Origin: Catajapyx aquilonaris
Lineage: Eukaryota
Direction of reading: 5' to 3'
DNA: 59,520 nt
NCBI GenBank assembly: GCA_000934665.2
Contig: JYFJ02002309.1
Coordinates: 1-59,520 of the forward strand
Shown: one piece after another, positions 5,271 through 43,390 of the stretch
Layout: each line of letters starts with the position of its first letter
Position numbering within the stretch: the first letter of the stretch is position 1
Position numbers and translations under genes: made by a program
The notes under the pieces: model-generated
What the model saw: only the letters and a program-made list of their open reading frames with translations
Told to the model about the DNA's origin: nothing
Database searches by the model: none

Positions 5271-5564
5271 TTATTTCTTACCTTTGGAGGTGTTGGTGTG
5301 GCGCAGTGTGGCTTCTATCAGGCACCTTCCAATGTTATAATTTGGCACAAAACCGGCGGTAAATGGAATGCCAGATATGTGATCCCGCTTATGTAAATTT
5401 GCGTGCAAAATCTCATTATTCCAGTGTCCAGTAGGGGAACGGAAGATCCAGTGGTTTGTCTCTGCAGGGTATGTTCCTATCGTCAGGGTAGCAGCTTCCT
5501 TCGGAAATAGGACTCCATCTGCATTCTGGTAACAATGGCTGGCAATGATTACACCCGGTTCCAT
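5271..5564 (-). pseudogene. Maverick-type DEDD/DnaQ-like protein, 3'-truncated copy
   Basis: MEPGVIIASHCYQNADGVLFPKEAATL..NHWIFRSP..SGIPFTAGFVPNY fits the insect Polinton exonuclease-like family pattern (..F.PKE.A...H.LF..GI.W/F..G..PY). Homologs at 10872, 32130/35068 and 41700. Confidence 0.55.
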
Positions 5565-5745
5565 GCTGGGAGACTGTTGACCGAAAACACCCCTTCCATA
5601 GATATATGTTTGCGATTTGTGCGCACGCACTCATAAATGCTTTCTACCCGGAAAGGTTGCAGGATAGAATAATGGAACAAGTCCCTATCGAAGTCGATTT
5701 ATTGCAAACAACTGCTCTTCTGCTACTCACAATGGGGGCCGTTAA

Positions 5746-6468
5746 TCAATATTTTTGTTCACCCGGAACACGTGAAATTATAGGTAGTGGGGCCTGTATA
5801 GGGATCTTATACTCACGCTTTTTCTCTTTTTTACTCATGCTCCTGATCTTAAATTGGAGCCCAGACAGTTCCAACCACTATTCTTCGGCCTGGGACATTT
5901 CACACAGAAACTAATTGGTAGTCCTATACATGGAGCGTCGGCCCACATAAACTTGTGGGCGTGAGAGAGCATAACACAATGTTGCAGAGAGCCTGTATTT
6001 GAGGGTTGAGTTTTTCCCCATCCATGGTATTTTAAGGCCTGCTTATTTGTTTCCAACACATAGGCCCCTTCGTGTCCGATATCATATGCTCCAATGTATA
6101 AATGCGTAGGAAAATCTTCTGAAAATATAAAGTGTAAGCATCGCATACATTACAAAGCATGAGGCACTTACTTTGCACCAAATAATTTACTATTTCTCGA
6201 TGTTCATCTGCAGAGTCGATCATCGCCAAATGAGAATTCATGTTTGCACATATCTCCGAGGCTTGGAACCAGTTGGCAACATGTGTTGCAGACGTGTAAT
6301 AGCATCCCGATCCAATGCTCGTAAATGGAGATCTACACTCTTGCGCTGGAAAAAAAATGTTGAACCCCTCACCAACACAAATTGTTCGTACTTACATTTC
6401 ACGGTTTGAAGCAAGAGAAGAGCAGTTGTAAAGAGTAGCAACATTTTCGTATTGTTGGTGAACTTCAT
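5746..6468 (-). pseudogene. Secreted C-type lectin domain gene, copy 1 (spliced, frameshifted)
   Basis: Signal peptide MLLLFTTALLLLQTVKC, then C..MNSHLAMIDSADEH, LYIGAYDIGHEGAYV, WGKTQPSN..HCV..WADAPC. GT-AG intron at ~6120-6171. Confidence 0.8.
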
Positions 6469-7029
6469 TCTCGCCTTCTCCTTTATGTGCTCAGTTCACG
6501 CTTGCTTGCCCATAATCCCGGATGATTTTACGCCCACCCAAATGCAAATATGCTGCCTCGTGCAGCTGTTTTAGGATCCTATTATGCATTTGTAATACAA
6601 GGTTTTTTCCTGGCACTTGTGTCAGTAGTTGTCCCCTCCACCTGTGCCAATTTCTCTGCAATACATTGTTTGTCCTGACACAGGCATTGCTGTGCCAATT
6701 TGCATATGCGCCAATTGACCTGTAAGTGTGCGTAGTCCCAGGGGGAATTAATCCGGGCTCTGCTAGAATTTCGTGTCGATTTCTCTAAACGCCGATTGAT
6801 TTTTCGGTCTTGAATAATTTGGAACAAGTGTGAGGTTCTACACCCAAATACACGGTTACTTGCAGAGCCATGTCTCCAAACTAGGTGAAACTATGGCATG
6901 TGAAGGAAGATATATCAAAATGGGGTTGGAACTAATGAAACTACGAGGAGGAAAAAATTTCACTGACCATGACGGCGCGAGACGGAAATAGTGTGAAAAA
7001 GAGGATCTATACGCCTGATTGAAAATCGC

Positions 7030-9518: not shown

Positions 9519-10175
9519 GGCGCTGTGTTGCACAACTCCAGTGCAAGGATGAGTGGGACATTATACGTGAGCATCATTTAGCTCCCTACTCATCCTCGCA
9601 GCGTGCAACTCCAGCATCATCTTCATCTTGGCTTGGTGGAGCTCGAGGGCCATCCTCCTCTTAGCTTCTACCAGACGCATCTTTGCCTCATGCAGCTCCA
9701 GCTCTCGGTTTTGCGGGTTTTCTGTAATCAGATATTGTTTATGCTCTTGACTTAATTACATCGACATACGTCGACATACGTTGCCATGCACTATATCATT
9801 TTCCCCTATTTCATTCATTTTGAAATTAAGTGATGTAGAACATGATTCATGCATTCATTGCATATGGTTATATAAATATCATGGAACATCATTGAGTAAT
9901 ATGGCTCTATAATTATGGTGGTTGAGAAACTATATAAATTCAATTATGTCATTCACGTGAGTTAGAATGTAATAGTTTCTTTTCACAATAGGCATTTGAG
10001 AAATTGAAAATTGATTACCTTCGCGAGTAGATGTAGATGGGTGTGTAAATCGGTGCACCCGTAGTTCATTCGCTGTTAGGAAGAATTGGGTGCACCCATC
10101 CCAAAGATAGACCGGTGTAAACACCGATCGTTCGGCTCTTGGTTGAACAGTATTGCTCATCCCGCGCTCGGGAGG
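9519..10175 (-). repeat. C2H2 zinc-finger exon plus downstream exon, diverged duplicate of 19787-20352
   Basis: YL(C/W)DGCTQFFxTANELRVHRFTH followed by a GT intron in both copies; obvious nucleotide similarity. Confidence 0.75.
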
Positions 10176-10280: not shown

Positions 10281-10560
10281 CTACTTCTCCCTCGGAATGA
10301 AATGAGAGTCATAACGGGTCCAATTATGGAAAAATACAGGCACCTTATCGTCCAATTGATATGCCACATTACATTTCTGATGAGCCACGCCCCTGTCTTC
10401 GCCGGTAACATGACAATGATCTTTGACTATGACGTCATCAGGTAGGAATGGCTCCTCACAAATGTGGCAGGTCGAATTGGCCACTGTGTCATATGCCGGT
10501 CTTTTTCTAAAGGCTTGTGCTTGCCTTTTATTATAAAACACTTCTATATGATTTCTAATA
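10281..10560 (-). pseudogene. pPolB fragment (endonuclease VII zinc domain to exonuclease II motif)
   Basis: [45 protein letters not shown] matches 39530-39710. Confidence 0.85.
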
Positions 10561-10871
10561 CACTGTGATACTTATGTCTCTGGTCGCTCCTGTTAACTAT
10601 GGTTTCCGGTCAGGAAGGTTCTTCCATCCGGCCATCTTGTAATGACCTCGACGTCCTCGGCTCTCCTAGGATCGCCTCCTCAAGTCTTCTTGCTTCGGTC
10701 CCTCTCGTGTTGTCTCTCTTCAAACTCCGGCCTCAAAAAACTCTCCCTTCAACTGTGTCTTCTTCCCTATATCTGAGAGTGACCGACCACAACCTAAGGG
10801 CGTGTCTCTTCCCGGGGCTCTCTGACTTGGCGTTAAAAGCCACGAAGTGGAGTACCCATTCCCTTATTTTC

Positions 10872-11449: not shown

Positions 11450-12154
11450 ATATGTCAATGTCTGATGGCATGTCTGTCTTGTTATTTACTACTTCAATTA
11501 TGTGTGACAAGTAATGTACTATGGCATCTACATAGATCTTGGGGGTAGCATCTTCATTCTCCACAGGTAAAGCTAGTCGAGTAATTCGTTGGTTCTTGGC
11601 TATGAAGTTTTTTCCTCTTCTTGAGGTGCAGGTTTTCTCGTTCCTTCAAATATGAGTGTCACTACATCGTCATCAAACACTGGCATTTGCAATTTGATAA
11701 TGCGCTTATTTCGAGCATGAAATGTTTCATCATCATCACCTGTCAAACACTTTTTATGGACATACTCTTTCGAAACAGCATCCCAATCTGTTTCTGCCAT
11801 TCGCAAACCAGTTAAAACTTGATTCTTCACTTGAAATGCTCCACCATGTAACATAATGCTATTGGCTTCCCAGAATTGTAAATTGACTGCATCGGAATGT
11901 TTCTCAGGTGCGAAAAGGTTGCGTATTCGTCTGCCTCGCACATTAATGGGGCCACTAGTGGGAATAGAAACCACCTGACTTCCATCCATCGTTGCATGGC
12001 CATATTCCTCCAGATACGATCTGGTTACGACATCAGCATCGACAGGTGCACCCACATTCCTTAATCGCTCACCATTAAAATCGAACTCATCCCTGGGACG
12101 CTTGCCTGTACCCGTCCTATGTATTTTTCCAGCGGGTGTTCCGAATCTATCCAT
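11450..12154 (-). pseudogene. YadA-stalk/Hep_Hag-like repeat protein (putative Maverick fiber), frameshifted near 11640
   Basis: MDRFG start and five xxR(I/L)xx(V/L)xxP....D(A/V)xxxx(Y/F) repeats: GERLRNVGAPVDADVVTRSYL, GRRIRNLFAPEKHSDAVNLQF, NQVLTGLRMAETDWDAVSKEYV, NKRIIKLQMPVFDDDVVT, NQRITRLALPVENEDATPKIYV. It lies directly downstream of the protease. Confidence 0.65.
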
Positions 12155-13320
12155 ATTGACTTAATATATCCTCGTAAGAACGACCCTGACTCAAGTCGGA
12201 CAAGATCACTATGCACAGGTGACCACAGGAAGGGAGAGGGTCAACTGGACTTTGCGGTTGATTCGTATTGTAATAAATATTCCTGCACAGGTATCGATTT
12301 AACTCGAGAGGAGGGGTCGGATTTCCGATAGAATCGAAATATATTATCAGATTGTAGTTAATTTCAACCACAAAAAGGGGGTACTTAGCTCAGTAGCTTT
12401 AAATGTACCAAAAACCCAGTCGAGATCAACCAGAACGAAGCAGGTGGTAAAATCAGTGCATAGACAACTTCACATTCGGTATAAGCTTGTTTATTTAGGC
12501 GGTCATGTTTACAGAACAGACTCTAAGTGTAAACCCTAAAACTCCCATGGAAAAGTAGACACCTAGGCAAGTCAAGCACGTTACTTTGACCAGATGGAAA
12601 CAGCACTAATACTCACACCAAGTTGGGTTGGACATCCCGACACGTCCAGGACTGATGCTGGGTCGTCTTCGTTGGCTCTCGTTCCCCTCAGGACTCGACC
12701 CTTATGCCCTCGAAAAATAGGCTTTTATAGTGTCTCACCGCGTCATTCTGCTTATCGCGTCCCTTCGGAGAAGCCAGTGCCGTCAAATAAGGGTCACCTT
12801 GATTAGGCGTTTAATTCATAAGAAAAAGACTATTTTCAACTTGTGTCGCAATAGATATGGGCCTTGTACACGGGCGTTTCCACATAACTCGTGACGTCTG
12901 TGTGTAGGCGTACCGGACCTTTTTAGTCACGATCTTCTACTAATTGCAACTGCGTACTTGATGTCGAAATGGGAAATCCACTCTTGAAGGTCATCACTGA
13001 CGTTCATCGAAATTCCCCAATGAGTCACAATAAATCCCCTCTTTAAGCTGCATTGTTGCAGGGAGACCATACGCCCTCAGTTCGGGTATACACCGTGTTA
13101 TAGCCAAATATCTAACAATATTGCTGAACCATCATTCAATCGCTGGTAGCAGGTCCAGTGAGTGCCAGGACCAGACTCTTGAGTCCAGAATAATTACACC
13201 ACATTCCTATTTACGTGGACTGGAAGGCAATTTATCCTTCATAAATACACCACGGAATCGTTTTATTTTCAACCACTTAACCAGGTCAATAATATCCAAG
13301 TTCGTGAGTGGTTTTATATT
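12147..13320 (-). pseudogene. Adenain-like (Maverick PRO) cysteine protease split by a solo LTR
   Basis: PLTNLDII..LKIKRFRGVFMKDKLP..*ECGVIILDS / GPGTHWTCYQRLNDGSA|IYFDSIGNPTPPLE..Q..CGHLC. His/Asp/Cys triad motifs are present, and removing the LTR plus one ATAT restores the frame. Confidence 0.8.
12345..13117 (-). mobile_element. Solo LTR (773 bp) with ATAT target-site duplication
   Basis: ATAT at 12341-12344 and 13118-13121. Minus-strand termini TGTTAGAT...ATCTGATA, internal AATAAA, and precise interruption of the protease. Confidence 0.7.
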
Positions 13321-13470: not shown

Positions 13471-14560
13471 CTACACTATTGTTTCTCCAACAGTCACCAA
13501 AAGAAACGATTTTAATTACCATACATATGTCTGAACCCGGAACCCATTATCTGAATGTCCTGGTCCCAGTTTTCCGGGAGGATTACCACCACTCTCCCAG
13601 CGCCCCGCAGATTTATGGCGACATGATGTTGCGGACAACGTACCACATCAACCCTTGTTGTACCGTGTAGTTGTATGGGTGGGAAGGTCCGTTGGTGGTC
13701 CTCTTCCTCCCGGTTGAACAGGGTATAGGTGAAAGTTGGGATAATGCGGTAGGGTGGTCTTTGGATCCAGCCAAGTTGCGAAGCCCTCGGTGAAACCCAT
13801 CCTCCAGCGGCTACATCTCCGGTAGAGGCATGATGAACTAGTTCGTCAGGTGTCTCCACACGTCCAGTAGCTGCTGATGTTCCAGTCCATTGTCGAGATC
13901 CCGGTGAGACCCATCCTCCAACAGCTTCATTTCCAGTGGAGGCATGATGAACTGGTGTAGGTAGACGAACATCTTCGAGCGTCTGCTCAGTAGCTGATGT
14001 TGTATCCATTGTTACCTTTTCACCGAATGCGGGCAAAACGATTCCGTCCTTATATAACCTCTAGCTTCTTCCTATCATAAATACACATACTGCACCTGTT
14101 CACTTCACTGAAGCGAATCCAACAGGTGACACATTTGTAACATGCTACTCTGAAAAAAAATATGGGATCGATAGATTTAGAATTCCTAAATCACAATACC
14201 AGAGTTTATTCAGAATCAGAATAATCAGATGTAGATTCCCGAAGTCCCAAATCACAATTACAATACAAAATAATACGAAAACAGTGTGTGCAGAATTTCT
14301 TCTCATGTTTTGAAGTACTTATACATGAACGACTGCAAGGGAGAGTGTAAAGGAAATCAAAAGTTTTATATGCGAGAAGATGGGGGAGGTATAATATAAT
14401 TTGATAATTTTCACTCTCAGGCATCATAATTATACGTTTTAAGTCGGTTATGAAGATGACACGATAAACAGACTTCAACTGAAGTATTGATGATAACAGG
14501 GAGCTGAAAATAAGAAAAAACAAAGGTTCCGATCACATTTCTTTTAATTAGAAATGAGTT

Positions 14561-15013
14561 TTACAGCAAGAGAGCTTGTTTAGCTGAATCCTCGATTGAT
14601 TTTAGCGCTTTCAACATTTGCGGTAAGGAACGCAAGGTAAACCAACCCCCCTTTTTCGGATTGTTGGGAAATCCATCAGGATACTCGTGAAAGTGAACGA
14701 TTGGTGTGGTCTTAAACATTTTGATAAGAGAGGATCCAATCGTTGTTGTACTTGATGACAGGTAAATTTTCCACAGCAGCAATCATGGTGTTAACTTCAT
14801 CAATCTTCATCTCACATGCAGTTAAGTCTGAAAAGCATTGTGTTAAAATAATGTCACAAAAAATGGTATCCAGTACTCACCAATAATCTTGGGCTTCTGT
14901 GCTTCATCCGGGTTCAATTGGTTCTTGGCCTTAACCTTCAACCCTTCCACACCGAATAACTTATTCCCAGATGTAGGGTGGGCAAAATCAAAAGATTGGA
15001 AGTTTGATACCAT
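14561..15013 (-). pseudogene. PC4/Sub1-like ssDNA-binding protein gene (2 exons, frameshift)
   Basis: TATA at ~15105, ATG at 15013, gtgagt..ttttcag intron, then LPVIKYNNDW..KMFKTTPIVHFHEYP..KKGGWFTLRSLPQMLKAL. Confidence 0.55.
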
Positions 15014-15548
15014 CTTAGGAGTTGTGTTCGACAGGCTCTGGGAGAACTGAGTTGTGCTCTACTGGCTGGTTGGAATAATCCAGTGCTCCTAATGTGTCCT
15101 TCTTATATCTACTAGCGCATACCGTGTTCCACAGGAAGTATTGTACAGATGGGAGAGTTACGGATTTAACGGATATTATCAGGAAGTGACATCCAGATGG
15201 GAGAGTAACGAACTTATTTGCAGATGGTAGAGTAACGAACTTATCAACAGGTGGGAAACTTCATATGACCAACGGACAGAACTTAAAAGAAGTGTAGAGT
15301 GAGGAATCAACTCATTCTGGTTGTAAAATGTTGTAATGACTATAATGGAAATGTTTCTTCTATAGGAACTTGTTTCCGGTCCCACGTCTCTTGCACATTT
15401 ATTTCCATATACAACTTCCTTTGTGGTTGGCCTATCGCTCATTCTTAAGCGTCGTCGAAGGGTGTAGCTATCATAAGCTATTACTTATTTCTTTTTCTAT
15501 ATTTCTAAGGGTCCTATACCCAGTTTTACCTATTTCGGTAACAATTTA

Positions 15549-15820
15549 CATGCTCTCCTTGGTCTGGTGCTGGTCGAAGTTAGACTGATCCAACGGCACC
15601 GTTAGCTGGGTATGGTCCTGTACACGTTCCTGTATGTCTATGTCAATCCGCTCATTCCCCTTGTCCCCGGCGAAGAGGGTGCTCACTTCACTCCCGAAGA
15701 ATCCTCGCTCTATGAACTCACTTACATAGTCCATCTTCCGGAACATCCCGTTCTCTGTCTTGGCTACCGGCCGCACCTTCCCTCCCTCCACCTTTTCCAT
15801 TACGACCATTTGTTCACGTA
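15549..15820 (-). other. Endogenous fragment of a toti-like (IMNV/Artivirus-like) dsRNA virus RNA-dependent RNA polymerase
   Basis: Stop-free MEKVEGGKVRPVAKTENGMFRKMDYVSEFIE..STLF..TVPLDQSNFDQHQTKE, i.e. RdRp motif F (K.E..K.R) and motif A (LDQSxFD) with the spacing I recognise from arthropod toti-like viruses. Confidence 0.7.
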
Positions 15821-15940
15821 TGAGGTTCGACCCCAATAAACAGAACCACCTGTACTGGCATGGCTCGAGTGAAACGACGGGAGGTGCGGAGTGCCATATA
15901 TCGGAGGAGGAAAAAAAAGGAGGGAGGTTACAAACGCGAA

Positions 15941-16300
15941 TTAGCTCCCTAGCATCCTGTGCTCCATGCAAAAGGCAACACGTCGCGCAAGATGCCAATC
16001 GACCGGCTCGGGGTCTATCAGAACATGGATCCAGTAGGACGCGCCCGGATCATCCGGCTCCACGAATTCCAGATAATAGTCCGCCAGGGGAGCCTCGTCG
16101 AATAAATTTACCAAAGCCTCCCCCATCCATCCGTCGCCGTCCTCCCAAAAGTCGTCGATACAGTAATACCGCCACGGACCGCCTCCCGGGCCCCAATCCA
16201 AGTAAAGATTTGGGAGAGGCCTCTCGTTAAATAAATTTACAAGCTCGCAGCCGTCATATTCCGCCTCGACAACGTCGCTAACAATGCGACACCATCCAAC
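15941..16300 (-). pseudogene. 'NLF' orphan gene copy (GC-rich variant)
   Basis: YDGCELVNLFNERPLPNLY / GPWRYY..WMGEALVNLFDEAPL; closest to 18268-18609. Confidence 0.6.
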
Positions 16301-17502
16301 CCCGCCTTCCCCCTCCTCCTCATCTCACACCTCACAATTGTACACCTCCAGCAAGTAGCCCAATTAGGAACTTGTTTCCGGTCCTACGTCTCTTGTACAT
16401 TCATTTCCATATACAACTTCCTTTGTGGTTGGCCTATCGCTCATTCTTAAGCGTCGTCGAAGGGTGTAGCTATCATAAGCTATTACTTATTTCTTTTTCT
16501 ATATTTCTAAGGGTCATATACCCAGTTTTACCTATTTCGGTAACAATTTAAGTCTCACTCCTTACTTCTCATGTAATCGAGCCTAATCCAAAATTCCATA
16601 GTTCAAATATAGCGATTCAGGCACATCTGAAAACATCCCACTCCGATTACAGGAGGGGACAGACAAATCAATTGGAATCAGGACCCCTTCAAGAGGCACC
16701 TCTGCTGGTCTTGGACTAATCGGCTGTTGTTCCGTCAGAGCCCTCTGCTGGATTTCCCGCAGCCCGTCTATTTTGTGGATCAATTCCGTAACTACCTTAA
16801 ATATATGATTTAGCACTTGGGCAATCGCCAATAATTTGCTCCCGACTTCGGTCATGGCCAAGGTAATCTCATGTAGACTGACCACCACTCTATTCACCTA
16901 CCTGTTAGCGTAAAACGGCGTCCCTGGCTCCTGAGATCTTCCTCCATTTTGTCTCAACTCATTCGGAATCTATGAACGCAGGTTTCCGCAAAATCCTACT
17001 CAATCATCAGACCATCGATCTTCGAATCGTACCAGACCATTACGGACGTACGGCCCTACGCATCTCGGGTTGTTCCTGTAGCCACTCTTCGACAAGAGCT
17101 CTAGTCTCCTCTTCTGCTGTTGCAGGAAAGTTGGACATATCTGCCGTATCTGCTGTTGACATTGCACTGAGAGTCTGGTCTCTAAATTGTGTCACCTGTC
17201 CCTCAAGAATACCTAACGTATTGGTCATGTATAGCAGAATGTCTGCTATAACCCTCATATTGTCACTGAGGATGTCGACTATGTCACGCAGGTGCCTCGT
17301 TTCCTGCCTCAGGTCCGATATCGACTGCCTCACGAAATGGGAATAGCCGTCCAGGATTCCTACTTGTTTTTTCACACAGTGGGGTCGCACCTAAATTTTG
17401 TGAAGTTTGGATTATTACAAGCTTACCCGTCACGTCAATGATATAGTCAGTACTGGTTAAACTTCGCTGTTCTTTCTGGATGTCATGTCATTATTATTAG
17501 TG

Positions 17503-18609
17503 TTATTGCGAAGAGGGGAGGGCTATCGGAACGTGCTGCAGGAAACATTTTTTCAGAGAATTATTCGTCAGCCCTTTGAACAAATCGCGATACGCGACCA
17601 TTTCCGCAGACAGGCCGGAGGCGGCGCGGAGTTGCCGTACCAGCGACACCAACCGCGGGGCGGCATACCAGCCCTCCGGCGTCATCCGGAGCAAGGCGGG
17701 GTCCTGCTCTGGCAAATCTTCGGAGGCGCTCTCCCGCTGGCAGAGTTCCGTGTCCATGTGGTATACCGCCCGGCAAAGAACCATTTTCTCGTAGCCGATC
17801 ATCTGAAAAGAAATGTTTTAGTATCTGGGGCGAGACTCTGGGCGGGGCGATACTCACAATTCCAGGCACAATGGGGCCGCGAGAGAGCCATGAGACGCCG
17901 CTAAAAATATCCAAGGAGGCCTTTTTTTGCACCCTACACGTGCATGCGAAGGAGGGGTACGCGCATTAGCTGTAGGTGTGAGCCAAGCCAGCTGGCGCGA
18001 GTCCCGGGTCAGTCAACACCTCGTGACGATTTTTCCAGACCCCCATCACCTTTTCGCTCTGACGCAATTTAAAACAATTATGAGGCTCTACCCCAAGATA
18101 CAGAACGACTTGTACGGACATGGCTCGAGTAAAACGGCGGCGGTGCAGAGTTGGCATTATATATAGAGAAAAAGGGAGGAGACGACCACGGCTGGAAATA
18201 GTCAACGCGGCAACCCCCCAGGAAAAATGATAATGCTCCAATGAATGGGGGGAAGGGGGTTGTGTCTTTAGCCCCTCCAACCCTGCCTCCACCCAGTGAA
18301 ATAATACCAATTAATCGGGCCGGGCTCGATGGGAACGCGTTCCCAGCAGGGCGGGAAATCCTTCCGCTCGTATAATTGTAAGTAATGGACCTCCAGCGGC
18401 GTTTCATCGAATAAATTGACCAAAGCCTCGCCCACCCAGTCGTCGTCATCCCCGTTAAAATCCAGATCGATGTCGTTATAACGCCAAAAACCGTGGGCCG
18501 AATAATCCAGGTACAAATTTGGCAAGGGACGCTCGTTAAATAAATTTACAAACTCGCCACCGTCAAATTCTGCTTCAACTACGTCAGAGGGAACGCGGCC
18601 CCATGTCAC
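17503..18609 (-). CDS. NLF gene (18268-18609) followed by GVEPH/YRDLF gene (17503-18121)
   Basis: FDGGEFVNLFNERPLPNLY; MSVQVVLYLGVEPHNCFKL; GWYAAPRLVSLVRQLRAASGLSAEMVAYRDLF. Same gene order as 3240-5100. Confidence 0.65.
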
Positions 18610-18934
18610 CCGGACGGCGCCCTCCCCCTCCTCCTCCCAATAGGGGTCAAGGTCAATAACTTCTAGCTACCATCCGGACTCTGGCTCTTTGTCGTAGAGG
18701 TTGGCCAACTCGTCGCCGAAAAGCCGATCAATCGCGTTGGCTCCTGGAAAAAGGCGCGAGCCGGTAACGACGCAGTGCAGCCGAACGCGGCGATGTATTG
18801 CTGGCAGGGCATTATAAAGCACTCGTTACGGAGGCAAACCTCCAGGTGCACAATGTCACAATGGGAGCTAAACGAGGCAAGGTGCCAAGAAACGGGGCGA
18901 AAAAAGAGGAGACTGGCAGCTACTTATCGCCCGA

Positions 18935-19180: not shown

Positions 19181-20980
19181 TGGCCCCCATGTTGCCCTGC
19201 CTCCTGGTATCGCCATGCATGACCGGGGTCCCCTGCCCTCGCCTCATCCGATGTCCCTGCCGCGCTCCATGTCGCCCGTGTTGCGGTATGTTATGTCTTC
19301 ATGCCCATGTCGCTCGGTTAGCATCCTTCATGTCTCCATGCCGCAAGTTGCCCGGTAGTGCCATGTCGCCCGGTTAGCACCATGCATGACCAGGTCATTG
19401 CCATGTCGCCATGTCCCCGCCTCACCCTGGTCCATGTGACATAACCATCCCGGCCCTAGTCGGCCTCTTCATTCGCCTCATAACGTGGCTTATTGTTGGC
19501 AGTTCATGCTTTGCTCTCCTGCAAACACTTGAAAATGTGTTGCCGGGGTAGCAGAGTAATAACCTGCCTCCGACCACTCCTATATTTCTTGTCGGTTTTG
19601 GGCCGTCCTGACCCAACGTCCCGCTCCTTGGAAGCCGTGTATTGCACCTCCGCATATAAGGTGGCGGCGCTGGAGGAAGCCCCGTCGCGTGAAGCGTGCC
19701 AAAAGGCGGCGAAATCTTGGTCCTGTTGGTGGGCGGAGCCTTTGCCACCTTGTAGCCAAGTGTTTATTGCCTGGACAAATAAAACGCGCGCTGTGTTGCA
19801 CAACTCCGGATGAGTGGGACATTATACGTGAGCATCATTTGGCTCCCTACTCATCCTCGCAGCGTGCAACTCCTCCATCATCTTCATCTTGGCTTGGTGG
19901 TGCTCGAGGGCCATCCTCCTCTTATCTTCTACCAGCCGCATCTTTGCCTCGTGCAGCTCCCGCTTGCGGGTTTTCTGTAATCAGATATATGCTCTTGACT
20001 TATATTGCCATGCACTATATCGTTTTTCCCTATTTCATTCATATGAAATTAGGTGATGTAGAACTGCATTCATTGCATACGGTTATATAAATATCAGGAA
20101 ACATCATTTAGTAATTACGGTGGTTAAGAAACAATGTCATTCATGCGAGTTAGAATGTAATAACTTTCTTTTCACAATAGACATTTGGCTTACCTTCGCG
20201 AGTAGATGCGGATGTAGATGGGTGTGTAAATCGGTGCACCCGCAGTTCATTCGCTGTTGGGAAGAATTGGGTGCACCCATCGCAAAGATAGACCGGGGTA
20301 AACACCGATCGTTCGGCTCCTGATGGTTGAACAGTGTTGCTCATCCCGCGCCCCGCTCCCTGCATTACTATCCCACCTAGCGATGGCAAGCAAAGAACTT
20401 TTCGTTGTGAGATTGTCCCGTTCTCATTGACACTAAATATTTTAGCTATATATTGCTGGCGACTTACGATTGTGGAGTGCTGGCACAGTTAGGCTGTCGA
20501 TGTCGGTCGTGGATTGTGATCGATGTCGGTCGTGGATTGTGATTCTGAGCCCAATCGGGCCGTGCTTTTATACCCGTTTCACGTCTGGGTTTTGTGGAAA
20601 AAACAAGTTACAAATCGTCCCCTTGGAAATGAATTATGGTACCTCAATTTTACAACTTTTCCAGGAGAGCAATTGGAAAATATTGCAGATCTTAATTATA
20701 GCTTTTGGCAACAAGGATAGTAGATATTGTTCGTTTTTTTGACGGATTTGCATGACAGGCACAGCTATAAAGACTACCAGCTCAGTGGTACCTGAAATGA
20801 AGTCTTATTGATACAATAATTAATTGATTTATACACTTACCTTAGTTCACCGGCACCACATCTGTGTTGTTACTTACACTGTTGGAGTACTTACACTGCG
20901 TAGTACAGTACAAAGGACAGGAGGGTTGGAATGAATGAATAAATAATCTTTTTCATCAATTGATATTTATTGCACTAGCG

Positions 20981-21629
20981 TTAGTCATCGCTGTCATCGG
21001 TTGTTTCATCCCTTGCATGGCTTACTTTAAGATTCTCAGAAAAGCTGTGGTATGAAGTGGGAATCGTTCGTGACCTGCAAAGTCTGAGAAGGTCCTCTTT
21101 CTTCGCTTTGCTAATGGTTAGTGGGCCTGAATCATTTAACTTAGTCAGTTCAACTTCAGCTACGTTGTTACAGGAAGTCCTCTGTCGAGATCCTACTTTG
21201 CTGTAAACACACAATCGTTTGAAATCAGCTTGGTCTAACTCTTCTTTATAAAAAACCATTCCTGGTTCCTCCTTTCTAACCTGAATCCATTTGATCCGAA
21301 GCCATGGCACAGTACTATGGTCTGTCGCTGTAGTCTTATTACGCATAACAGTAGCGCTGAATTTCTTAAAATCTATGAAATCGGATAAGTCCATTTCCTT
21401 CACGTCATACATTGGGGAAGTACTCCTAGCAGTTCTGGCAACGTGATACCACCCTTGTGGTGAGTATATCGGTACAGATTTTCCTCTTTCCTCAATGGCT
21501 GAGTGGACACTATCACACTCCATCTCTGAATGGCCTGACTCCATAAATTTCTGGTTTATCACTTTGATAGGTAAGCATGTAACGGCCCGCAGGAACATGG
21601 CTGTATTGATGGAATTGCGATTTTGTACC
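20981..21629 (-). pseudogene. Sola1-like transposase C-terminal catalytic part
   Basis: QNRN...KFMESGHSEMECDSVHSAIE..IYSPQGW..V.EM..DF.DFK..W.RIKWI..ISKAKKEDLL.LC..IP..YH.F. Confidence 0.75.
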
Positions 21630-22214
21630 TGATGACAGGTAAATTTTCCACAGCAGCAATCATGGTGTTAACTTCATCAATCTTCATCTCACATGCAGTT
21701 AAGTCTGAAAAGCATTGTGTTAAAATAATGTCACAAAAAATGGTATCCAGTACTCACCAATAATCTTGGGCTTCTTTGCTTCATCCGGGTTCAATTGGTT
21801 CTTGGCCTTAACCTTCAACCCTTCCACACCGAATAACTTATTCCCAGATGTAGGGTGGGCAAAATCAAAAGATTGGAAGTTTGATACCATCTTAGGAGTT
21901 GTGTTCGACAGGCTCTGGGAGAACTGAGTTGTGCTCGACTGGCTGGTTGGAATAATCCAGTGCTCCTAATGTGTCCTTCTTATATCTACTAGCCCAAACC
22001 GTTTTCCACAGGAAGTATTGTACAGATGGGAGAGTAACGGATTTAACGGATATTATCAGGAAGTAACATCCAGATGGGAGAGTAACAAAATTATTTGCAG
22101 ATGGTAGAGTAACGAACTTATCAACAGGTGGGAAACTTCATATGACCAACGGACAGAACTTAAAAGAAGTGTAGACTGTAGAGTGAGGAATCAACTCATT
22201 CTGGTTGTAAAATG
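21630..22214 (-). repeat. Duplicate of 14753-15331 (PC4-like gene promoter plus exon 1), fused to the Sola fragment
   Basis: Near-identical sequence, including three CAGATGG(G/T)AGAGT(A/T)AC repeats. Confidence 0.9.
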
Positions 22215-22356
22215 TATCTGTGCCAGTTTGTGGTCATAATTCGAGGACAGAATACGCCTTTCAATTACATCTCTACGATGCTCACATTTGTCGTATATGT
22301 GGGGAAAAAAACAAATATAGTGTACAGGGCCCAGCATAAAGGCGCTACGGGGCCAT

Positions 22357-24596: not shown

Positions 24597-27086
24597 TCAC
24601 ACATTTTTATAATGTCCAATAGCTCGGGTCATCTTCCCATCAAGTAGAATATGGCGCTTGTCATCAAACGCATTTAGAGCAATTTTCTTAGAAGTTACAG
24701 TATGTACATTGTGATCCGTACTCCTAATGGCAGTCATTGAGCAATATTCCGTGGTTTGTTGCTCAAGAACTTTTTTATATACATCATGCGTCAGATGTGA
24801 GCGACTCTTTTTCCCAACTCCTTTTGCGGTGGCCTTGTGGGTCATGTCCACCATCTCCAAAGAATAACATTTTGCTCGCAATCCGACAAAAGACTTAATT
24901 ATTTCTCCACTCATTTCATCCTTAAATTTACCAGGGACTTTCTTATTGGTTACATCATGGAGGCGGTGGGTGGGGGGAAATTCTGACAGACCAAAGAGAT
25001 GTTTGTGTTTTAACATATCCTCATAGACATCACTTCCAGTCACATGAATCAAAAGGCTGTCGGTATCGGTGAAACACAATTCGCACTTCTCACCGTACAA
25101 AGGAAGCAAGTGATTATAAAAAATTTATACATAACCCTCTTGGCCGCCTCCAGAATGCAAAATCCAATTGCAATGGGTTGGTTCAGCACCACATTAATCT
25201 TCTGCTTACTCACCTGAACCAAATCCTCAGCCAAAATTTTCATATTTTTAAAACTAGGTTTCTTCATCACTTTTTTGGCACGCTTCCCACTCGTAATTAA
25301 CTCCAAATTAACATATTTCCGGACTGATTGTAACATTTTCCCATAAATTGAATTGTTGGCTAATTTGAATAGACTTTTTTCAAAGTCATTAGTGGCAGCC
25401 TTCCTCAAACTTGAATTCAGGTCAATATATTTTTTAACACAGGTGCTTGCTCAAATTGAAGAATTCTGTGGACTTTAGAAAGTTGCAGACCATGTTGAAC
25501 ATACATCTGCAAGTTTCTATAGTCCACAACATAGTTTTCTTTATCAAGTAAATTCAGAATCAATTTCTCATTAAATTTGGCATGCGGAAGTGATCTCTGA
25601 AAGTCTGATAGATGCTCATCCTTCACACACATTTTCTCGGGGGCCATTGGGAAATGAGAATGTCATGCAGTTCTCTGGGATATTTCAAGTCAACTTCCAA
25701 AATATATCCAATAGGACTATCATGCGGTGTTGCCATCACCTCATAAATTTTTTTAGGTGAAACCCATTGATATCCTACGGGCATGGATAGTGCCATTACA
25801 AATCCATATAAATTGTTCGCATCGAGATATAATAAAAAGGACTCGGGTCTGGATGGATCATACAAATCACCCATGTACCGATTATTGGCTTCAGCATACC
25901 GCTTGGCCACCATGGCAACACCGCCTCTCAAGCGTCTTTCAATGAAAATATGAGCCTCTACATCTGTCAGAAGACCCAATTTCACCCCAGTCTTTTTTAA
26001 ACAAGCATCCAGACTCAAACCAGGAAGAGAAATATAATGGCAAGGGTCCAAATCGTAATTCAGCTTACTAACACCTCTGAATTGTTGAAATATGTCACCC
26101 AACAATAGAACGTCTCTTTTCAGATAATGGTCGTGAAACTGACCTAAATTCTGACATTGAGTCACCTGCCAGACCTTTTTGGCAAAAGAATAATCCTCAT
26201 CAGTAATTCCCTGACTGGTTAGAGAGGGGAAAAAACCTTTCTTGGGGGGCAGGCACGTTTCCTCAAATTTTGCAAAGGAATCCGTATATTCATAACAATA
26301 TATTCCTTTTTGCCTAGTACAGTCCAATACAGCCGGATCAGTTATGACCTGGCTAGTGACAGGTAGGTTCAAGCCACTTGCAACTAAATTTTTGACTAGA
26401 GTGTTCAAACTAGTACTTAGAAAATTGAATGAATCTAGAAAAACAATATTATTTAGAGTTAAGCAAGTGATTTGCTCGCTGTTTCTAGCTATTAAATGGA
26501 TCTTATCTCCTTTCCTACCTGCCAAAGCCTTCACAATGAAATGTGAGTCATCTCACCCACATCTGAACCTTGGAAAATGGTTTGCATGTCACTATTAAAA
26601 TATGCCTCTACTTCACTCTCAATTCCTGCCATGGTGGTTGTCAGGTAGACTCGGGTCCTGATGGCCGGAAAATCACGAAACTGTAGATGCCACAATGCAG
26701 GTAGATCCAGATGATCAAATACTTCCTCCACAGTATTGAAGTATGATAGGTCGCCAGACACATACTGACGACAGATGTTGTTGAAGGCAGCATTTTTTAT
26801 GGAATTTATCCTGTAAAAACATTTGTATTAGTCACCATGCTTTCACAACAATTAGGATTACTTACAGTTGTTGGAGCTGGGTGATGTATCATACGGTGTT
26901 CCGCCAATGTCTGTGCATCTCTCATAAATCCATTGCAGATATTGCATCGATGATCTGTACTTATATGCCTGAATAACCTTTGCTCTGACCTAAAAATAAT
27001 ATGTATCAATACATATCAATATGATGTTATCTTATTACTCACTGGGAGCGGAAATCGCAGGTGTTGCAGCGGTGGGTTGACATCAT
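24597..27086 (-). pseudogene. Protein-primed family B DNA polymerase (Maverick pPolB) with spliced N-terminal C2H2 fingers; internally deleted and frameshifted
   Basis: FLDSFNFL, YLDANNLYG (motif A), KLANNSIYGK (B), FTDTDSL (C), GKFKDE, FVGLRAKCYS, FDDKR. Fingers CNTC/CNICNGF..H..H carry GT-AG introns. The EndoVII region is deleted near 26560. Confidence 0.92.
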
Positions 27087-31924: not shown

Positions 31925-32125
31925 AATGTGGCCAATCTGAGCTTTCCCATCTCCATCAATGATGTGGCCATATTCGAACGGCAAAATTCCATCTCCGTCA
32001 ATTTATTCGGTTATGAAGACAAAGATATATTTCCCCTACGCATCGCCGAGACCGTCCTGTTACAACACGTCGATCTGCTACTGTTAGAGGAAAATGGGGC
32101 GAAACATTTCTGCGCAATTGCGTAA
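31925..32125 (+). pseudogene. pPolB N-terminal fragment
   Basis: NLSFPISINDVAIFERQNSISVNLFGYE..IFPLR..HVDLLL.E..HFC matches 38905-39100; fused by deletion to the tail of the DEDD-like gene. Confidence 0.85.
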
Positions 32126-32487
32126 CACGGGCATCCCCACTCTTCCACGTTGAACACGGGCCGGTGCAAATATCTGGCCAGCATGTCGCACTCTCCGTAG
32201 CCTGCAGTTGCAAAATAAATCAACGTTTTTTTTGCGCACAAGCGTAATCGCAATGTTTCTTACCTTTGGCGTAGAGCTTTGGGCGTAGAGGCTCGGGTAA
32301 TTCCTCGTCGCCCTTGTCAAACACTTTGGAATGCGCTGATACGGCACGACTCCCGCCCTAAACGGAATTTCGGATATGAAATCACGCGTGTACAGATTGG
32401 CGTATAAAATGTCTCTGGGCCAATGGCCCGCGGGCGTGCGAAACATTCAATGATTGGTCTCGGGATATGCATACCACCGATAGGGTG

Positions 32488-34987
32488 TGTCGGACCTAGG
32501 CAGGTACGGGTCCGAATATTAGTTGGATAGGGGTATGTGGCATGGCTGTACGTGAAATCACACAAGGCTGGTGGTTAAATTCATAACTCAATTTAATGTA
32601 CTCCGACTAACATACTGGTACCTCTGAATATTATAACAGTCAAACAATGTACAACTTCCTCCCTATGGAGGGATCCCTTTCAAAATCACATACTTCGCGA
32701 TTGAAAATTCTTACCTGTTGGAATGCTCAAGCTCTGTCTGCCGGGCTGTCAAGATGTGAAGTCTAGTTAAAATAATTCCGGCGCTGCTTTTATAGTGCCC
32801 GGTTTGGGGTGGGGTTTGCACCACGTGAGTGTCCTTTTCGGGGTTTTTACCAGTAATATCGACGTAATCCTAACATCCCGAAATGAACTTGTTGTATTAA
32901 TAAGGTGGGCTGCTCGTACTGTCCTCCGCTCTCGGACTCTAATGGCCTTTTGAATGGCTTTTCGGCGCCAGGATGTCTACTGCTTCATAGATTCCGGTGC
33001 CTTATACTCTTTGCTCTGGCATTGTACTGATATTCCCAATCATGTTATTTAAATGAGTTTACGGGGCATAATTATAGCAAACTACTTATTACGAACTTGA
33101 TTATGATAATTATATGAGTTGTTATGCCATGCTTGGCATGACAAATATCCACCCACAACGGAAAAGAATTTTCAATCGCTTTCTTGCAAGTGTTAGCATC
33201 ATAGCACTCATTACACTTAATACAGGTATTGCATTCAAATGCACTCTTTTTCTGGTTGCTACTTATCATTGTAACACAATACTTTTAAACACTTAGCGGT
33301 CTATAATTTATACGGATGCACATATAATTTCTCCACATCGGTCAGTTATACATGTCACTTGAACGATTACGTAAACCCTTTGAACATTGAATACATCGAT
33401 ATTGTGGTAACCTATTTACACATAAAAGAGAGATGATCAGTTCATTATTTAACATGCCGAAATTACTGGTTAATATTCCTATACAACTGGCGATAACTGT
33501 TCACTGCACATCACTGCATCGTAAACAGGCGCACTTGATATATAACTAAATTGCACTAGCACTGAAACATGCACTGGTTGTCTTCTTCAGCAGTTGGGCT
33601 GTATGCGAATGTCATTGGCACATCTCCCCGGACAGCTGGTTAACACACAATAGTCATAGAATTCTTGAAATTCACGGTAAGATGAGAAGCGGCATGTGGC
33701 GTGTTTTCTTATGTGACGGTCCTGCGGTGTCCATCCTAGGCCGTCTGTGCGGTAATGCTCTTTCAGTGCCTCCCACACCACGATAGGATTGTTCACTGCT
33801 CCTGCCGGATGTTGGTCGCTGATATACTTAAGTTCGGGCGACTCCCAGTGTGGACCGGTCCCTATCTTAAGTGTCGGTGTGCGAGTCAGCCACCGTCGTA
33901 CTACATAACCACACAACACCACAACCACACAACACACCGTCAAAATAAGTATGATAGCCATCTTATAGGTTGGTGTGTCTAGCTTAGGTAACACTGCCTT
34001 GGCTACCAAACCTATAATGAATCTACAAGCTTGTGGGCAGCGACGAATTTTCTTCGTTTTGTTTACATATTGTAGGGTGGTACTGACATATTAATGGATG
34101 ATTCCCATCTCAGTGTTTCGTATATACTCCAGGGTGGCATACTCATATATCATCCTAATTAATGTAATAGACACTACGCACCTTAGGCAGATCCCCTATG
34201 GGCTCTAATATACACGTACACATAACAGACACTACCATCAACCTAAACAATCACAACCACCACTTCCAACACTCAAAATTTTTTTAATTACATTTAGCGT
34301 TAATCATCATTATCCTGCAGGCTGCGCCAATTGTCGGACCTAGGCAGGTACGGGTCCGAATATTAGTTGGATAGGTGTATGTGGCATGGCTGTATGTGAA
34401 ATCACACAAGGCTGGTGGTTAAATTCATAACTCAATTTAATGTACTCCGACTAACATACTGGTACCTCTGAATATTATAACAGTCAAACAATGTACAACT
34501 TCCTCCCTATGGAGGGATCCCTTTCAAAATCACATACTTTGCGATTGAAAATTCTTACCTGTTGGAATGCTCAAGCTCTGTCTGCCGGGCTGTCAAGATG
34601 TGAAGTCTAGTTAAAATAATTCCGGCGCTGCTTTTATAGTGCCCGGTTTGGGGTGGGGTTTGCACCACGTGAGTGTCATTTTCGGGGTTTTTACCAGTAA
34701 TATCGACGTAATCCTAACATCCCGAAATGAACTTGTTGTGTTAATAAGGTGGGCTGCTCGTACTGTCCTCCGCTCTCGGACTCTAATGGCCTTTTGAATG
34801 GCTTTTCGGCGCCAGGATGTCTACTGCTTCATAGATTCCGGTGCCTTATACTCTTTGCTCTGGCATTGTACTGATATTCCCAATCATGTTATTTAAATGA
34901 GTTTACGGGGCATAATTATAGCAAACTACTTATTACGAACTTGATTATGATAATTATATGAGTTGTTATGCCATGCTTGGCATGACA
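32488..34987 (-). mobile_element. Complete 2.5-kb non-autonomous LTR element (656-bp LTRs, GGTG TSD)
   Basis: LTRs 32488-33143 and 34332-34987 (TG..CA, about 5 mismatches). GGTG on both sides, PBS TGGCGCAGCCTGCAGGAT (tRNA-Ser-like), no gag/pol. Confidence 0.92.
33587..33961 (-). CDS. Small single-pass membrane/signal-anchor protein inside the LTR element
   Basis: The first in-frame ATG gives MAIILILTVCCVVVVLCGYVVRRWLTR... (~124 aa), in sense orientation to the element; it is the longest internal ORF. Confidence 0.45.
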   Translation of the reverse strand: MAIILILTVCCVVVVLCGYVVRRWLTRTPTLKIGTGPHWESPELKYISDQHPAGAVNNPIVVWEALKEHYRTDGLGWTPQDRHIRKHATCRFSSYREFQEFYDYCVLTSCPGRCANDIRIQPNC

Positions 34988-38297: not shown

Positions 38298-41200
38298 ATG
38301 AGTAAGGTGCATGGGTGTGATCTATGCGATGCAAGGTTCGTCTCGAGTCACCAATTATTACAACATTTAAACACCAATCACCAATGTAATTTTTGCAATG
38401 CGACCTTTGCAAACCTCGAGGAGTTGAGAGCGCATCGTCAGACTGCACATCCCATACCAAATGTGGTAAGAAATTGGGTTTTAAAAATAATTTCGTGTCA
38501 TTAATTAACATAATTAGCCAGGATTTGTGCTGGTGAAGAAGAAGGTGAGATTGTGGCATATTTTCACACAAACTTTGAAATTATATATCGTCATTCTAAT
38601 AGGGAAGATGTGATCAAGAGGATGGTGGAAAAGATAATACGGCCATTTCAAATTTTGAGAGCAAGGGATCTAATTGGTTTTTAAAGAATTTTGAATATTT
38701 AGATATTGTAGCGGGGAAATATGTCGCTTGGCGAGCAGGGTGTTTTATCCAAATCCCCAAGGAATTGGTGAACAAGAGAGCCTTAATTAATGTACACGCA
38801 CCCGAAGACAAATGTTTTCTGTATAGTGTTGCCGCGGGTTTAATGAGACCTAGTGAGCATGCGAATCGTCCCAGACAATATGAGACGCTCATTGAGAGCT
38901 AGAATGTTTCAAATTTAATTTTTCCCATCTCTATAAAGGATGTTGGTAAATTTGAGAAGAGAAATTCCATCTCTGTAAATATTTTTGGGTATGAAAATCA
39001 TGTAATTTTTCCTTTGAGGGTAACTCAAGTAGACATGCCAGAACATGTAAATCTCCTATTGTTTGAGCAAAATGACTCGCGACATTTTTGCACCATCTCA
39101 GACCTAAGCAGGTTGCTGGCAACAGGTCGAGAATCTGGGAGATATAACTGCCGTTATTGTTTACTTCGCTTTAAGAAGCCTTGCCAGGATCATGAATTGC
39201 ATTGCAAACAGTTTGATTTGCAGAAAACAAGCATGCCAAAAAATCCCATGCTAACTTTTAAAAATGTTCACAAACAGTTGCGAAAAAGTTTTGTGGTATA
39301 TGCAGATTTTGAATGTTTTATTACCGAGTCGAACAAACACGTGCCGCATAGTTATGCATACGTCATAATTAATGCCCGCGGAAGAGTGCACAAGTTTTGT
39401 TTATATCGTGGTCCAAAGGCAGTGAATCGCTTCTTAAAAAGTTTAGAGGCAGATGTAAACAGTCTCGTGCCAAAAATTCAGCAGCATCGGAAAAGGCGGG
39501 CAGGTATAGAGGAGGGGGAGGAGGAGCCTGAAATGTGTCATATTTGTGAGCAAGAATTCCAGTCTAACGATGAAATCGTTGTTGATCACGACCATAATTC
39601 AGGAGTTTTCAGTGGTTATGCACATAAAAAATGCAACTTGTCTTTTCGCCTCGATTCAAAGATTCCAATTTTTTCCACAACTTTGGCAGGTACGACTCGC
39701 ACTTTATAATTAGAGAAATGGCTGGCACGAATGCTAGAATAGAAATAATTACGCGTAATTCGGAACAAGTTATTTGTATGATAGTGAATGAAATGTGTTT
39801 TCTGGATAGTTTCAAGTTTTTATCCACAAGTTTAGAGAAACTAGTTCAAAATCTTGTTTCTGACCAACACGATTTCTCCATTGTTAAACAAGTGGTCAAA
39901 GACACGACCTTGGCGCAATGTTTTTTACGTAAAGGCGTTTTTCCTTATGAATTTGTTAATGATTGGGAGAGTTTGAATGAGATGGCCTTGCCAGGGAGAG
40001 AAGCCTTTTATTCCAAGTTGACTGGGCGTGGCATTACACAGGAAGATTACGATTTTGCACAACATGTGTGGAGAGTGGCAAATGGCAAGGATTTAGGGCA
40101 ATATTCGGATAATTATCTTCAAGCTGATGTCCTTTTACTTTCAGAAATATTTGAGGCATTTAGAAAATTGAGTCTGGCTACATACGGATTAGATCCTGCT
40201 CATTATTTATCTCTCCCAGGCCTGACCTTGGACGCGTGTCTGAAAAAACTAAAATCAGTGTCGAGCTGTTTTCTCATCCGGACCTTTACATTTTCGTTGA
40301 ACAAGGAATTCGCGGAGGGTTATCGATTATAGGACAAAGATTATTCCAGGCGAATAATCCTTATATGGGGAAAAATTATGATGCAACCAAACCTACGTCA
40401 TATGTTGCGTATGTCGATGTGAATAACCTTTATGGCAACTCTCAAACGTTATATCTGCCTGTAGGACATTTTTATTGGGGCGATCCAAAAGATTTTGATG
40501 AATGGATTCGTAATAATGCTGTAGACGTGGCGGATGACTGAGGTGGGGTACATGTTACGAGTTGATTTATACTATCCTGCACACCTGCATAAGACGCATT
40601 CTTGCTATCCCTTGGCGCCAGAAAAATTAATTGTGAAAGACGAATGGTTGTCAGACTTTCAACTTACCATGAGTGGACGCAAAGCACCTTCAAAAATTTC
40701 AAAACTGGTTCCATCTCTGTTTCATAAAAAGAACTATATTGTTGACTATATATGTCTGAAGCTGTACTTGAAGCACGGTTTAAAATTAACTGCCATACAT
40801 AGAGTATTGCAATATAAACAGGCCCCCATTTTAAGAGAGTACATTGAACTTAACAATGGGTTACGAAAGGATGCAAAAAATGAATTTGAAAAAGCGCAAT
40901 TTAAATTATTAAATAATGCACTTTACGGAAAGTGTTTAGAAAACATTAGAAATCGAAGCATTTTCACTCTGATTACCCAGCATAAAAATCTCGCTCGACA
41001 CATGAATGCTCCTTCCCTCCAAAGGGCAATAATTTTAGCCAAAGATTTGGTTTTGGTGCAAAAACGCAAACTTTGTGTGGAATTATGTAAACCTATAATT
41101 ATCGGGTTCACCATTCTCGAATCAAGCAAATAATTAATGTATGAATATCATTATGAATTCATTCGGCCATTATATAAAGATAAATGTGTCCTGCTTATGT

Positions 41201-42462: not shown

Positions 42463-42633
42463 GGTGGTAGACTGTTGGCCGAAAACACCCTTTCCTTGAT
42501 ATAGGTTTTTGCGTGTTGTGCGTGCGCACTCACCCGGAAGTCTTGTTGTCAGATAGAATAATGGAACGGTCTCTATTGCAGTCGATTTATTCAATATACA
42601 ATACTCTTCTGCTACTAACAATGGAGCTGTTTA

Positions 42634-43376: not shown

Positions 43377-43390
43377 TCTCGTCTTCTCCT

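Follow-up and report, generated by a model that had tools for sequence, protein, structure and literature searches.

The window (the whole stretch of 59,520 nt that was analysed) raises a simple question: is the short stop-free stretch that follows a broken gene at 15.5–15.8 kb a remnant of an RNA virus polymerase preserved in chromosomal DNA and, if so, from which virus did it come and how did it get there? The preliminary description of this DNA had read it as a fragment of a non-retroviral, toti-like dsRNA virus RdRp lying in genomic DNA. This core reading was supported by a phmmer search, by the presence of the RdRP_4 family in the homologues, by a profile built from relatives and by a unitig running from the viral into the host sequence. 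The fragment is very probably an endogenous viral element (EVE), i.e. a DNA copy of a part of the RdRp of a toti-like dsRNA virus that became fixed in an animal genome, in a region rich in repeats. The features needed for the argument are listed below; R stands for a 186-nt repeat present in two copies, and the GVEPH family is a group of related gene copies named after the residues GVEPH.

14746–15331, unstranded: truncated repeat copy, 97% identical to 21623–22215, with homology ending at 15331 (R copy A begins after a further 31 nt)
15332–15362: 31 nt with no assigned content, between the truncated repeat copy and R copy A
15363–15548, unstranded: R copy A, 186 nt, adjoining the motif-A end of the RdRp fragment
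15546–15548, minus strand: TAA closing the RdRp frame, identical with the first three bases (in minus-strand sense) of R copy A
15549–15818, minus strand: RdRp piece as delimited by the junction, between R copy A and the truncated gene copy
15549–15821, minus strand: toti-like RdRp fragment in whole codons, 91 codons from motif F to motif A without stop or frameshift, motifs B and C absent
15819–16364, minus strand: truncated GVEPH-family paralogue, with an NLF-repeat ORF at 15941–16324 followed by the exon ending in GVEPH, cut right after GVEPH
16365–16550, unstranded: R copy B, 186 nt, lying immediately upstream of the truncated GVEPH-family gene copy
17503–18825, minus strand: fuller paralogue serving as the reference for the unbroken gene, with an NLF-repeat ORF, a GVEPH exon that extends beyond GVEPH, and an HTH-like ORF

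In translation, the RdRp frame was open over 167 codons (15546–16049, minus strand), the RdRp part being the final 91 codons from 15821 to 15549, which encode the peptide LIREQMVVMEKVEGGKVRPVAKTENGMFRKMDYVSEFIERGFFGSEVSTLFAGDKGNERIDIDIQERVQDHTQLTVPLDQSNFDQHQTKESM and are followed by TAA. The length of the piece is thus approximately 270–273 nt (15549–15818 by the junction, to 15821 by codons). The stop-free stretch of about 90 codons with the blocks EKVEGGKVRPV, RKMDYVSEFIE, TLF and PLDQSNFDQHQ, as pointed out in the preliminary description, was recovered completely within these last 91 codons of the minus strand. According to the base composition of the window, a random frame would stay open over 91 codons with a probability of about 0.006 and over 167 codons with a probability of about 1e-4.

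A direct Pfam scan of the fragment, either as the 98-aa or as the 167-aa translation, produced no family at E ≤ 10, so that routine annotation would overlook such a piece; most of the fragment is situated on the N-terminal side of the region that is modelled best in PF02123. The PDB sequence search with the fragment gave no matches, and a search for longer homologous proteins also returned none, the latter being weak evidence; phmmer did find relatives. The RdRp assignment rests on such homologues. The phmmer search with the 98-aa translation against 1,835,955,588 representative proteins resulted in 105 matches at E ≤ 1e-3, 51 of them at E ≤ 1e-10 and the best at 1.3e-52. The typical full-length matches were 750–800 aa long and aligned at residues ~250–340. 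All 20 of the 105 matches that were scanned contained RdRP_4 (PF02123) above the cut-off (35–92 bits against a cut-off of 22), and in two of the matches, P0074 and P0054, the PF02123 match itself spanned the stretch homologous to the fragment. A profile built from 19 full-length relatives and run unfiltered over six frames gave a single hit in the window, with 128.7 bits and an E-value of 6e-41, aligning profile positions 246–366 to 15462–15824 on the minus strand, with residue identities ending at the TAA. An extension of the RdRp homology into R, suggested by tblastn alignments to 15474–15540, was rejected, since the profile alignment was without identities beyond this codon. Formally, the direct Pfam scan corresponds to a lack of an RdRp profile hit, an outcome which had been named beforehand as counting against an RdRp, but it was overturned by the homologue-based evidence from phmmer and the 19-relative profile.

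The two signatures on which the preliminary description had relied, motif F (the basic hairpin, K-x-E-x-x-K-x-R) and motif A (a strand with D-x-x-x-x-D), are both present in the fragment with their conserved K, E, K, R, P, D and D: all seven columns invariant in the 19 relatives (K258, E260, K263, R265, P324, D326 and D331 of the homologue P0005) were retained in the window peptide. When the 19-relative profile was aligned to the foot-and-mouth-disease virus 3D polymerase, its D..sFD block paired with D240–D245, which form motif A of that enzyme, with the SG..T..N and GDD blocks located downstream, indicating that the window piece ends five residues after motif A. Motifs B (SG..T..N) and C (GDD) are missing: the homology stops five residues past motif A, at the R boundary, and no further RdRp piece was found in the window. 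With both motifs absent, the fragment cannot encode an active polymerase. It corresponds to positions 246–340 of the 789-position RdRp profile, i.e. to ~11% (about one ninth) of RdRps of ~790 aa, at residues ~250–340.

The fragment is part of an 816-nt chimeric block. Read on the minus strand, this block opens with the 5' portion of a GVEPH-family gene copy and continues with the RdRp piece; the two R copies bracket it. The truncated gene copy was colinear with 18079–18666 of the fuller paralogue at 70–84% nucleotide identity. The homology to the paralogue ended at 15819, while the RdRp homology started at 15818–15824 and ended at 15549, which fixes the junction between the two to ~3 nt. Three paralogues (at 18.0, 3.8 and 6.8 kb) continue for at least 40 codons beyond GVEPH, while the copy at 15.8 kb reads GVEPH-T-stop, indicating that the break right after GVEPH is real; the earlier statement to this effect was thus borne out, the paralogue homology terminating directly past GVEPH. 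The GVEPH and the RdRp reading frames are different, so the two parts are joined out of frame and the GVEPH frame closes at once.

The two R copies differ at four of 186 positions (182/186, 97.8% identity) and are spaced by 1002 nt from start to start. Neither nhmmer nor short-word blastn revealed a third or a diverged copy in the window. The search for the identity of R gave no Rfam family, no tRNA, no IMG/VR match by exact pattern and no similarity to 26 viral contigs. An interpretation of the R-block-R structure as an LTR retrotransposon was considered and rejected: R reads TAGG...ATTTA and is without TG..CA ends, primer-binding site, polypurine tract or short target duplication. The sequence beside R is RdRp-like or gene-family-like right up to the boundary, which leaves neither a primer-binding site nor a polypurine tract. 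The outer flanks of the R copies do not repeat, and no poly(A) was found at either end of the 816-nt block. With no LTR hallmarks in R and no poly(A), neither a classical LTR nor a LINE route of insertion is visible.

The gene to which the fragment is joined belongs to a family occupying 3.3–5.1, 6.7–8.6, 15.8–16.4, 17.5–18.8 and 27.5–27.7 kb of the window, all on the minus strand; besides the truncated copy and the stretch at 18079–18666, tblastn pointed to 8.1–8.4, 4.8, 27.5, 3.8 and 6.8 kb, also all on the minus strand. The fuller copies contain, in minus-strand order, an acidic ORF with repeated 'NLF(D/N)E.P' motifs, the GVEPH exon and an HTH-like ORF. A tyrosine-recombinase-like or HTH-like region in this family was dropped as a candidate, its sole support being a sub-threshold HTH_31 match with an E-value of 0.059. 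Pfam offered no family for the gene, two homologue searches were empty, the Atlas gave no hit that could be used, and two IMG/VR scans showed no relative; as to the empty Pfam scans, Pfam may lack Maverick capsid models.

The preliminary description had called this flanking gene a Maverick gene. In a rival explanation, the RdRp piece would be the cargo of a Maverick/Polinton-like or another large DNA element, captured in one of its genes and moved or amplified along with it. Such an origin would fit the presence of DNA_pol_B_2 and Endonuclease_7 fragments in the window, at 38.9–41.7 kb on the plus strand and at 24.6–26.6 and 10.3–10.6 kb on the minus strand, as well as the multiplication of the GVEPH family to at least four copies, all on the minus strand. 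However, only one copy of the family carries the RdRp piece, no terminal inverted repeats of at least 80 nt were found in the window, the family has no detectable relative among the IMG/VR contigs, and the polymerase B pieces are all truncated and separate from the GVEPH gene, the nearest (24.6–26.6 and 10.3–10.6 kb) being kilobases off. The cargo explanation is therefore unlikely. The Maverick label for the gene is a possibility that found no support here: the gene had no family or homologue, there were no terminal inverted repeats of at least 80 nt, and the truncated polymerase B pieces lie kilobases away.

The source of the fragment was traced through its homologues. Over the 90 columns of the fragment, the best database match, P0004, shared 62% identity with it and P0005 shared 59%. 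The Atlas neighbours of P0005 are RdRP_4 clusters consisting to 98–100% of Viruses, most commonly of Duplornaviricota. Relatives are encoded on 26 IMG/VR contigs, of which the complete-looking ones are 6.5–8.0 kb long and carry an ORF1 of 1366–1715 aa and an overlapping RdRp ORF. The structure of P0005 was predicted with the 19-relative alignment (pLDDT 92) and then searched against BFVD. The closest named entries were the RdRps of Shuangao toti-like virus (A0A1L3KF31; 41% identity, TM 0.96) and Dumyat virus (A0A411D3C2_2; 37% identity), both viruses falling within a TM range of 0.95–0.97, followed by a sharp drop to piscine myocarditis virus (18% identity to P0005) and two IMNV entries (13–14%). 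On the grounds of these comparisons, the source is very probably a toti-like dsRNA virus of the Pfam RdRP_4 type, from the clade to which Shuangao toti-like virus and Dumyat virus belong. The RdRps of these two viruses have fold and sequence family in common with the homologues of the fragment; they are complete polymerases of exogenous viruses, in contrast to the ~11% of such a protein left in the window. A best match of just 62% over the most conserved 90 residues indicates that the donor virus itself is absent from the libraries searched. No closer relative was found in the JGI metagenomes by exact 8-residue words, and a quick tree on the 90 columns, poorly resolved as a whole, placed the fragment on a branch of 0.62 in no well-supported clade.

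The fragment had originally been compared with IMNV/Artivirus-like viruses of arthropods. The proposed genus Artivirus, as presented in PMC8229945, includes IMNV and the Armigeres, Omono River and Drosophila totiviruses, while Leptopilina boulardi toti-like virus and its relatives are listed separately. They are toti-like dsRNA viruses of arthropods whose ORF1 is extended (PMC8229945). In favor of a virus specifically of this type, the fragment is an arthropod-associated toti-like RdRp, and related contigs have an ORF1 of 1366–1715 aa, a trait also given there for the proposed genus. Yet, compared with the 41% and 37% shared by P0005 with the Shuangao and Dumyat virus RdRps, its 13–14% identity to the two IMNV entries places the latter at a much greater distance, these identities being measured on P0005 and not directly on the fragment. 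A specific origin from an IMNV/Artivirus-type virus is accordingly very unlikely and the earlier label was imprecise.

Other pieces of the same virus were searched for in the window by several approaches, all of which pointed only to 15.5–15.8 kb: tblastn with 15 RdRps, where weak matches at 4.4–4.5 kb (E 0.6–0.9) were not reproduced; tblastn with all ORFs of at least 120 aa from the 26 IMG/VR loci, including the long ORF1s; and the unfiltered six-frame profile scan. Pfam scans of 168 further window ORFs revealed no other RNA-virus family; they covered 113 of the 124 ORFs of 75–109 aa (the 11 omitted being antisense ORFs in the gag region at 50–52.4 kb), 45 of the 91 ORFs of at least 110 aa and 10 additional ones. 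The fragment had also been described as co-oriented with other fragments. This was only partly confirmed: no other fragment of the virus is present in the window, while most of the long ORFs at 1–34 kb are indeed also on the minus strand.

The physical continuity of the viral and the host sequence was followed in Logan contigs of three runs from one sample, compared over 14900–16900. In all three DNA-labelled runs, both junctions of the RdRp piece were crossed by a 717-nt unitig (15519–16235) with a depth of 26–33, similar to that of the flanking unitigs; the 717 nt consisted of 270 nt of RdRp, 417 nt of the GVEPH family and a 30-nt overlap with R. The claim that the fragment is integrated in DNA was thereby supported in three runs of one sample, although the runs are labelled 'DNA?' and the sample is perhaps the source of the assembly, so that the read support is not an independent confirmation. 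The unitig common to both R copies had a depth of 59–67, about twice that of the flanking unitigs, which suggests that R exists only as these two copies, bearing in mind the warning of the tool that depths are not copy numbers. A paralogue contig of lower depth matched 16211–16365 with 15 differences and diverged exactly at 16365, indicating that the gene-family sequence reaches right up to R copy B. A loose contig end fell at 15331, where the truncated repeat copy stops. A small run from a second sample with the same species label (X5) gave no cover and is not evidence either way.

These data also bear on the suspicion that reads of an exogenous toti-like virus, present as cDNA, were misjoined to host repeats during assembly or stem from contamination. 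The region is repeat-rich, the runs are merely labelled 'DNA?', and all four came from one sample and one study; nevertheless, the 717-nt de Bruijn unitig, obtained independently, joined the RdRp and GVEPH-family sequences in each of three runs at flank-like depth, and only 273 nt of virus with sharp junctions and no other viral ORF piece were found, which makes an assembly chimera or contamination extremely improbable.

As to the present function, the locus is probably non-coding, judging from the missing catalytic motifs, the closed GVEPH frame and the position of the upstream 76 codons in a GC-rich sequence with all frames open. Expression of a functional domesticated chimeric protein, either from the 167-codon frame at 16049–15549, the openness of which (p about 1e-4 by base composition) is the point in its favor, or from an ATG-started tail of 87–88 codons, has next to no likelihood, as the GC-rich stretch with the upstream 76 codons is open in all three frames in the 18 kb paralogue as well, these codons show no protein-level conservation among the copies, GVEPH is in a different frame and stops at once, and the piece is without the catalytic motifs.

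The fragment testifies that this lineage was once infected by a toti-like dsRNA virus. Such toti-like EVEs are well documented in insects, and the locus is thus a small addition to a known kind. Toti-Chryso-like elements were described in ants (PMC6540820). In bumble bees, EVEs related to Dumyat virus were reported from 38 of 41 Bombus species, located in transposon clusters, and integration is stated there to be often aided by host retroelements (PMC12922265). In common with the window fragment, they derive from the RdRp of the same toti-like lineage and reside in an invertebrate genome among clusters of DNA, LINE and LTR elements; in contrast to it, they occupy sites that are orthologous among those 38 species and were verified by PCR (PMC12922265), while here a single piece of 273 nt was found in one sample. 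Compared to the bumble bee EVEs, the specific chimeric junction with a gene copy and the 186-nt flanking duplication are features of the window locus. For the black soldier fly, ten Totiviridae hits were reported, including an element of 3750 nt with a circulating relative (PMC9231314). This element, TotiEVE T1, is likewise a genomic toti-like EVE, the virus being defined by a domain of the RdRP_4 type; its closest hits include Leptopilina boulardi toti-like virus as well as Dumyat virus (PMC9231314). It differs from the window fragment, which keeps only the part from motif F to motif A, in its length of 3750 nt, in the presence of both capsid and RdRp parts and in having a circulating relative, HiTV1, and a short transcript (PMC9231314). 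Overall, the window locus is a genuine but ordinary small, non-functional viral fossil, which is unusual solely in its cleanly resolved chimeric architecture.

It is this architecture that bears on the way of entry. In insects, the reverse transcriptase of retrotransposons makes chimeric viral DNA, and EVEs occur in piRNA clusters. Similarly to such DNA, the viral piece in the window is sharply joined to a non-viral sequence in a repeat-rich and largely co-oriented region; it differs in that its partner is not a recognisable retrotransposon and R is without LTR features. The viral RNA would have been copied into DNA by a cellular reverse transcriptase, and the polymerase would have switched template between the viral RNA and a GVEPH-family transcript or copy, giving the 816-nt chimera. 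The chimera might then have reached the chromosome through a staggered break, the repair of which would have duplicated 186 nt, or by integration of a 1002-nt circle as a longer-than-unit copy. At a distance of 34 kb, a canonical LTR element has two identical LTRs, which indicates that a reverse transcriptase was recently active in this genome. By the four differences between the R copies (2.2%), the event and the nearby repeat copies with 97% identity are of comparable relative age. The locus is today most likely non-coding and may at most serve as a source of small RNA.

The latter suggestion relates to the strand bias at 1–34 kb: 18 of the 24 ORFs of at least 140 aa are on the minus strand, and all six on the plus strand overlap minus-strand ORFs. 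This bias makes it possible that the region is a putative single-orientation transposon graveyard acting as a small-RNA source. A more specific version can be entertained only as a long shot: the 1188-nt R-block-R structure would go back to a 1002-nt circle of chimeric viral DNA, formed by reverse transcription with template switching between a host transcript and a toti-like virus RNA and integrated as a longer-than-unit copy in a largely single-orientation transposon graveyard working as a piRNA cluster. If true, the locus would preserve, in fossil form, the circular viral DNA stage of insect-type antiviral immunity and would be a heritable memory of the virus. Whichever way the viral EVE was inserted, the useful part of the locus is its sharp junctions, with a broken paralogue on one side and a 186-nt duplication, seemingly found only here, on the other: an empty site or an orthologue would reveal how a non-retroviral RNA became chromosomal DNA.

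Several other features of the window and of the library matches were recorded. The LTR element at 49282–52491 is a canonical short retroelement whose 205-nt LTRs are 100% identical and bounded by TG..CA; it has a TGG primer site as well as a purine tract, and its target duplication is CTAT. It contains a single open frame of 911 aa with gag-type aspartyl-protease domains and neither reverse transcriptase nor integrase, and thus looks like a very recent, non-autonomous insertion. A direct repeat pair at 32488–33143 and 34332–34987 (656 nt, 99.2% identity, 1844 nt from start to start) may be another young LTR-type pair. The region 1–34000 is a mosaic of truncated repeats, with 1552–2728 equivalent to 13477–14650 (97.5%), 14746–15331 to 21623–22215 (97%) and 9520–10167 similar to 19788–20351 (80%). 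Fragments of a protein-primed type polymerase B (PF03175) were located at 38903–41670 on the plus strand, at 24600–26585 and 10287–10571 on the minus strand and at 31925–32173, all frameshifted or truncated, with an Endonuclease VII-like zinc module (PF02945) at the N-terminus; they are possible Maverick/Polinton remnants, with no terminal inverted repeats found.

A 186-aa frame at 11603–12160 on the minus strand matched the N-terminal domain of the phage T7 tail fibre (PF03906) with 26.5 bits against a cut-off of 25.2, which is odd for an animal-like genome; no single stretch of it passed alone. ORFs with a C-type lectin domain (PF00059) were present on the minus strand at 42637–43275 and 5838–6149, within a duplicated segment of 1.2 kb (5304–6493 and 42213–43401, 76% identity). 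Among the library proteins, the top-scoring phmmer relative, P0002, was a single frame of 1180 aa in which RdRp residues ~238–732 occur head to tail about 2.4 times, with a period of 471 aa. It represents either a polymerase segment that lacks its N-terminus and is multimerised in tandem, or an assembly artefact of a circular or defective molecule. P0004, which is closest to the window fragment (62%), is a predicted protein of 704 aa with a THAP domain joined to a C-terminally truncated RdRP_4 polymerase and probably represents a gene prediction spanning another endogenous element of toti-like origin, in a different genome.
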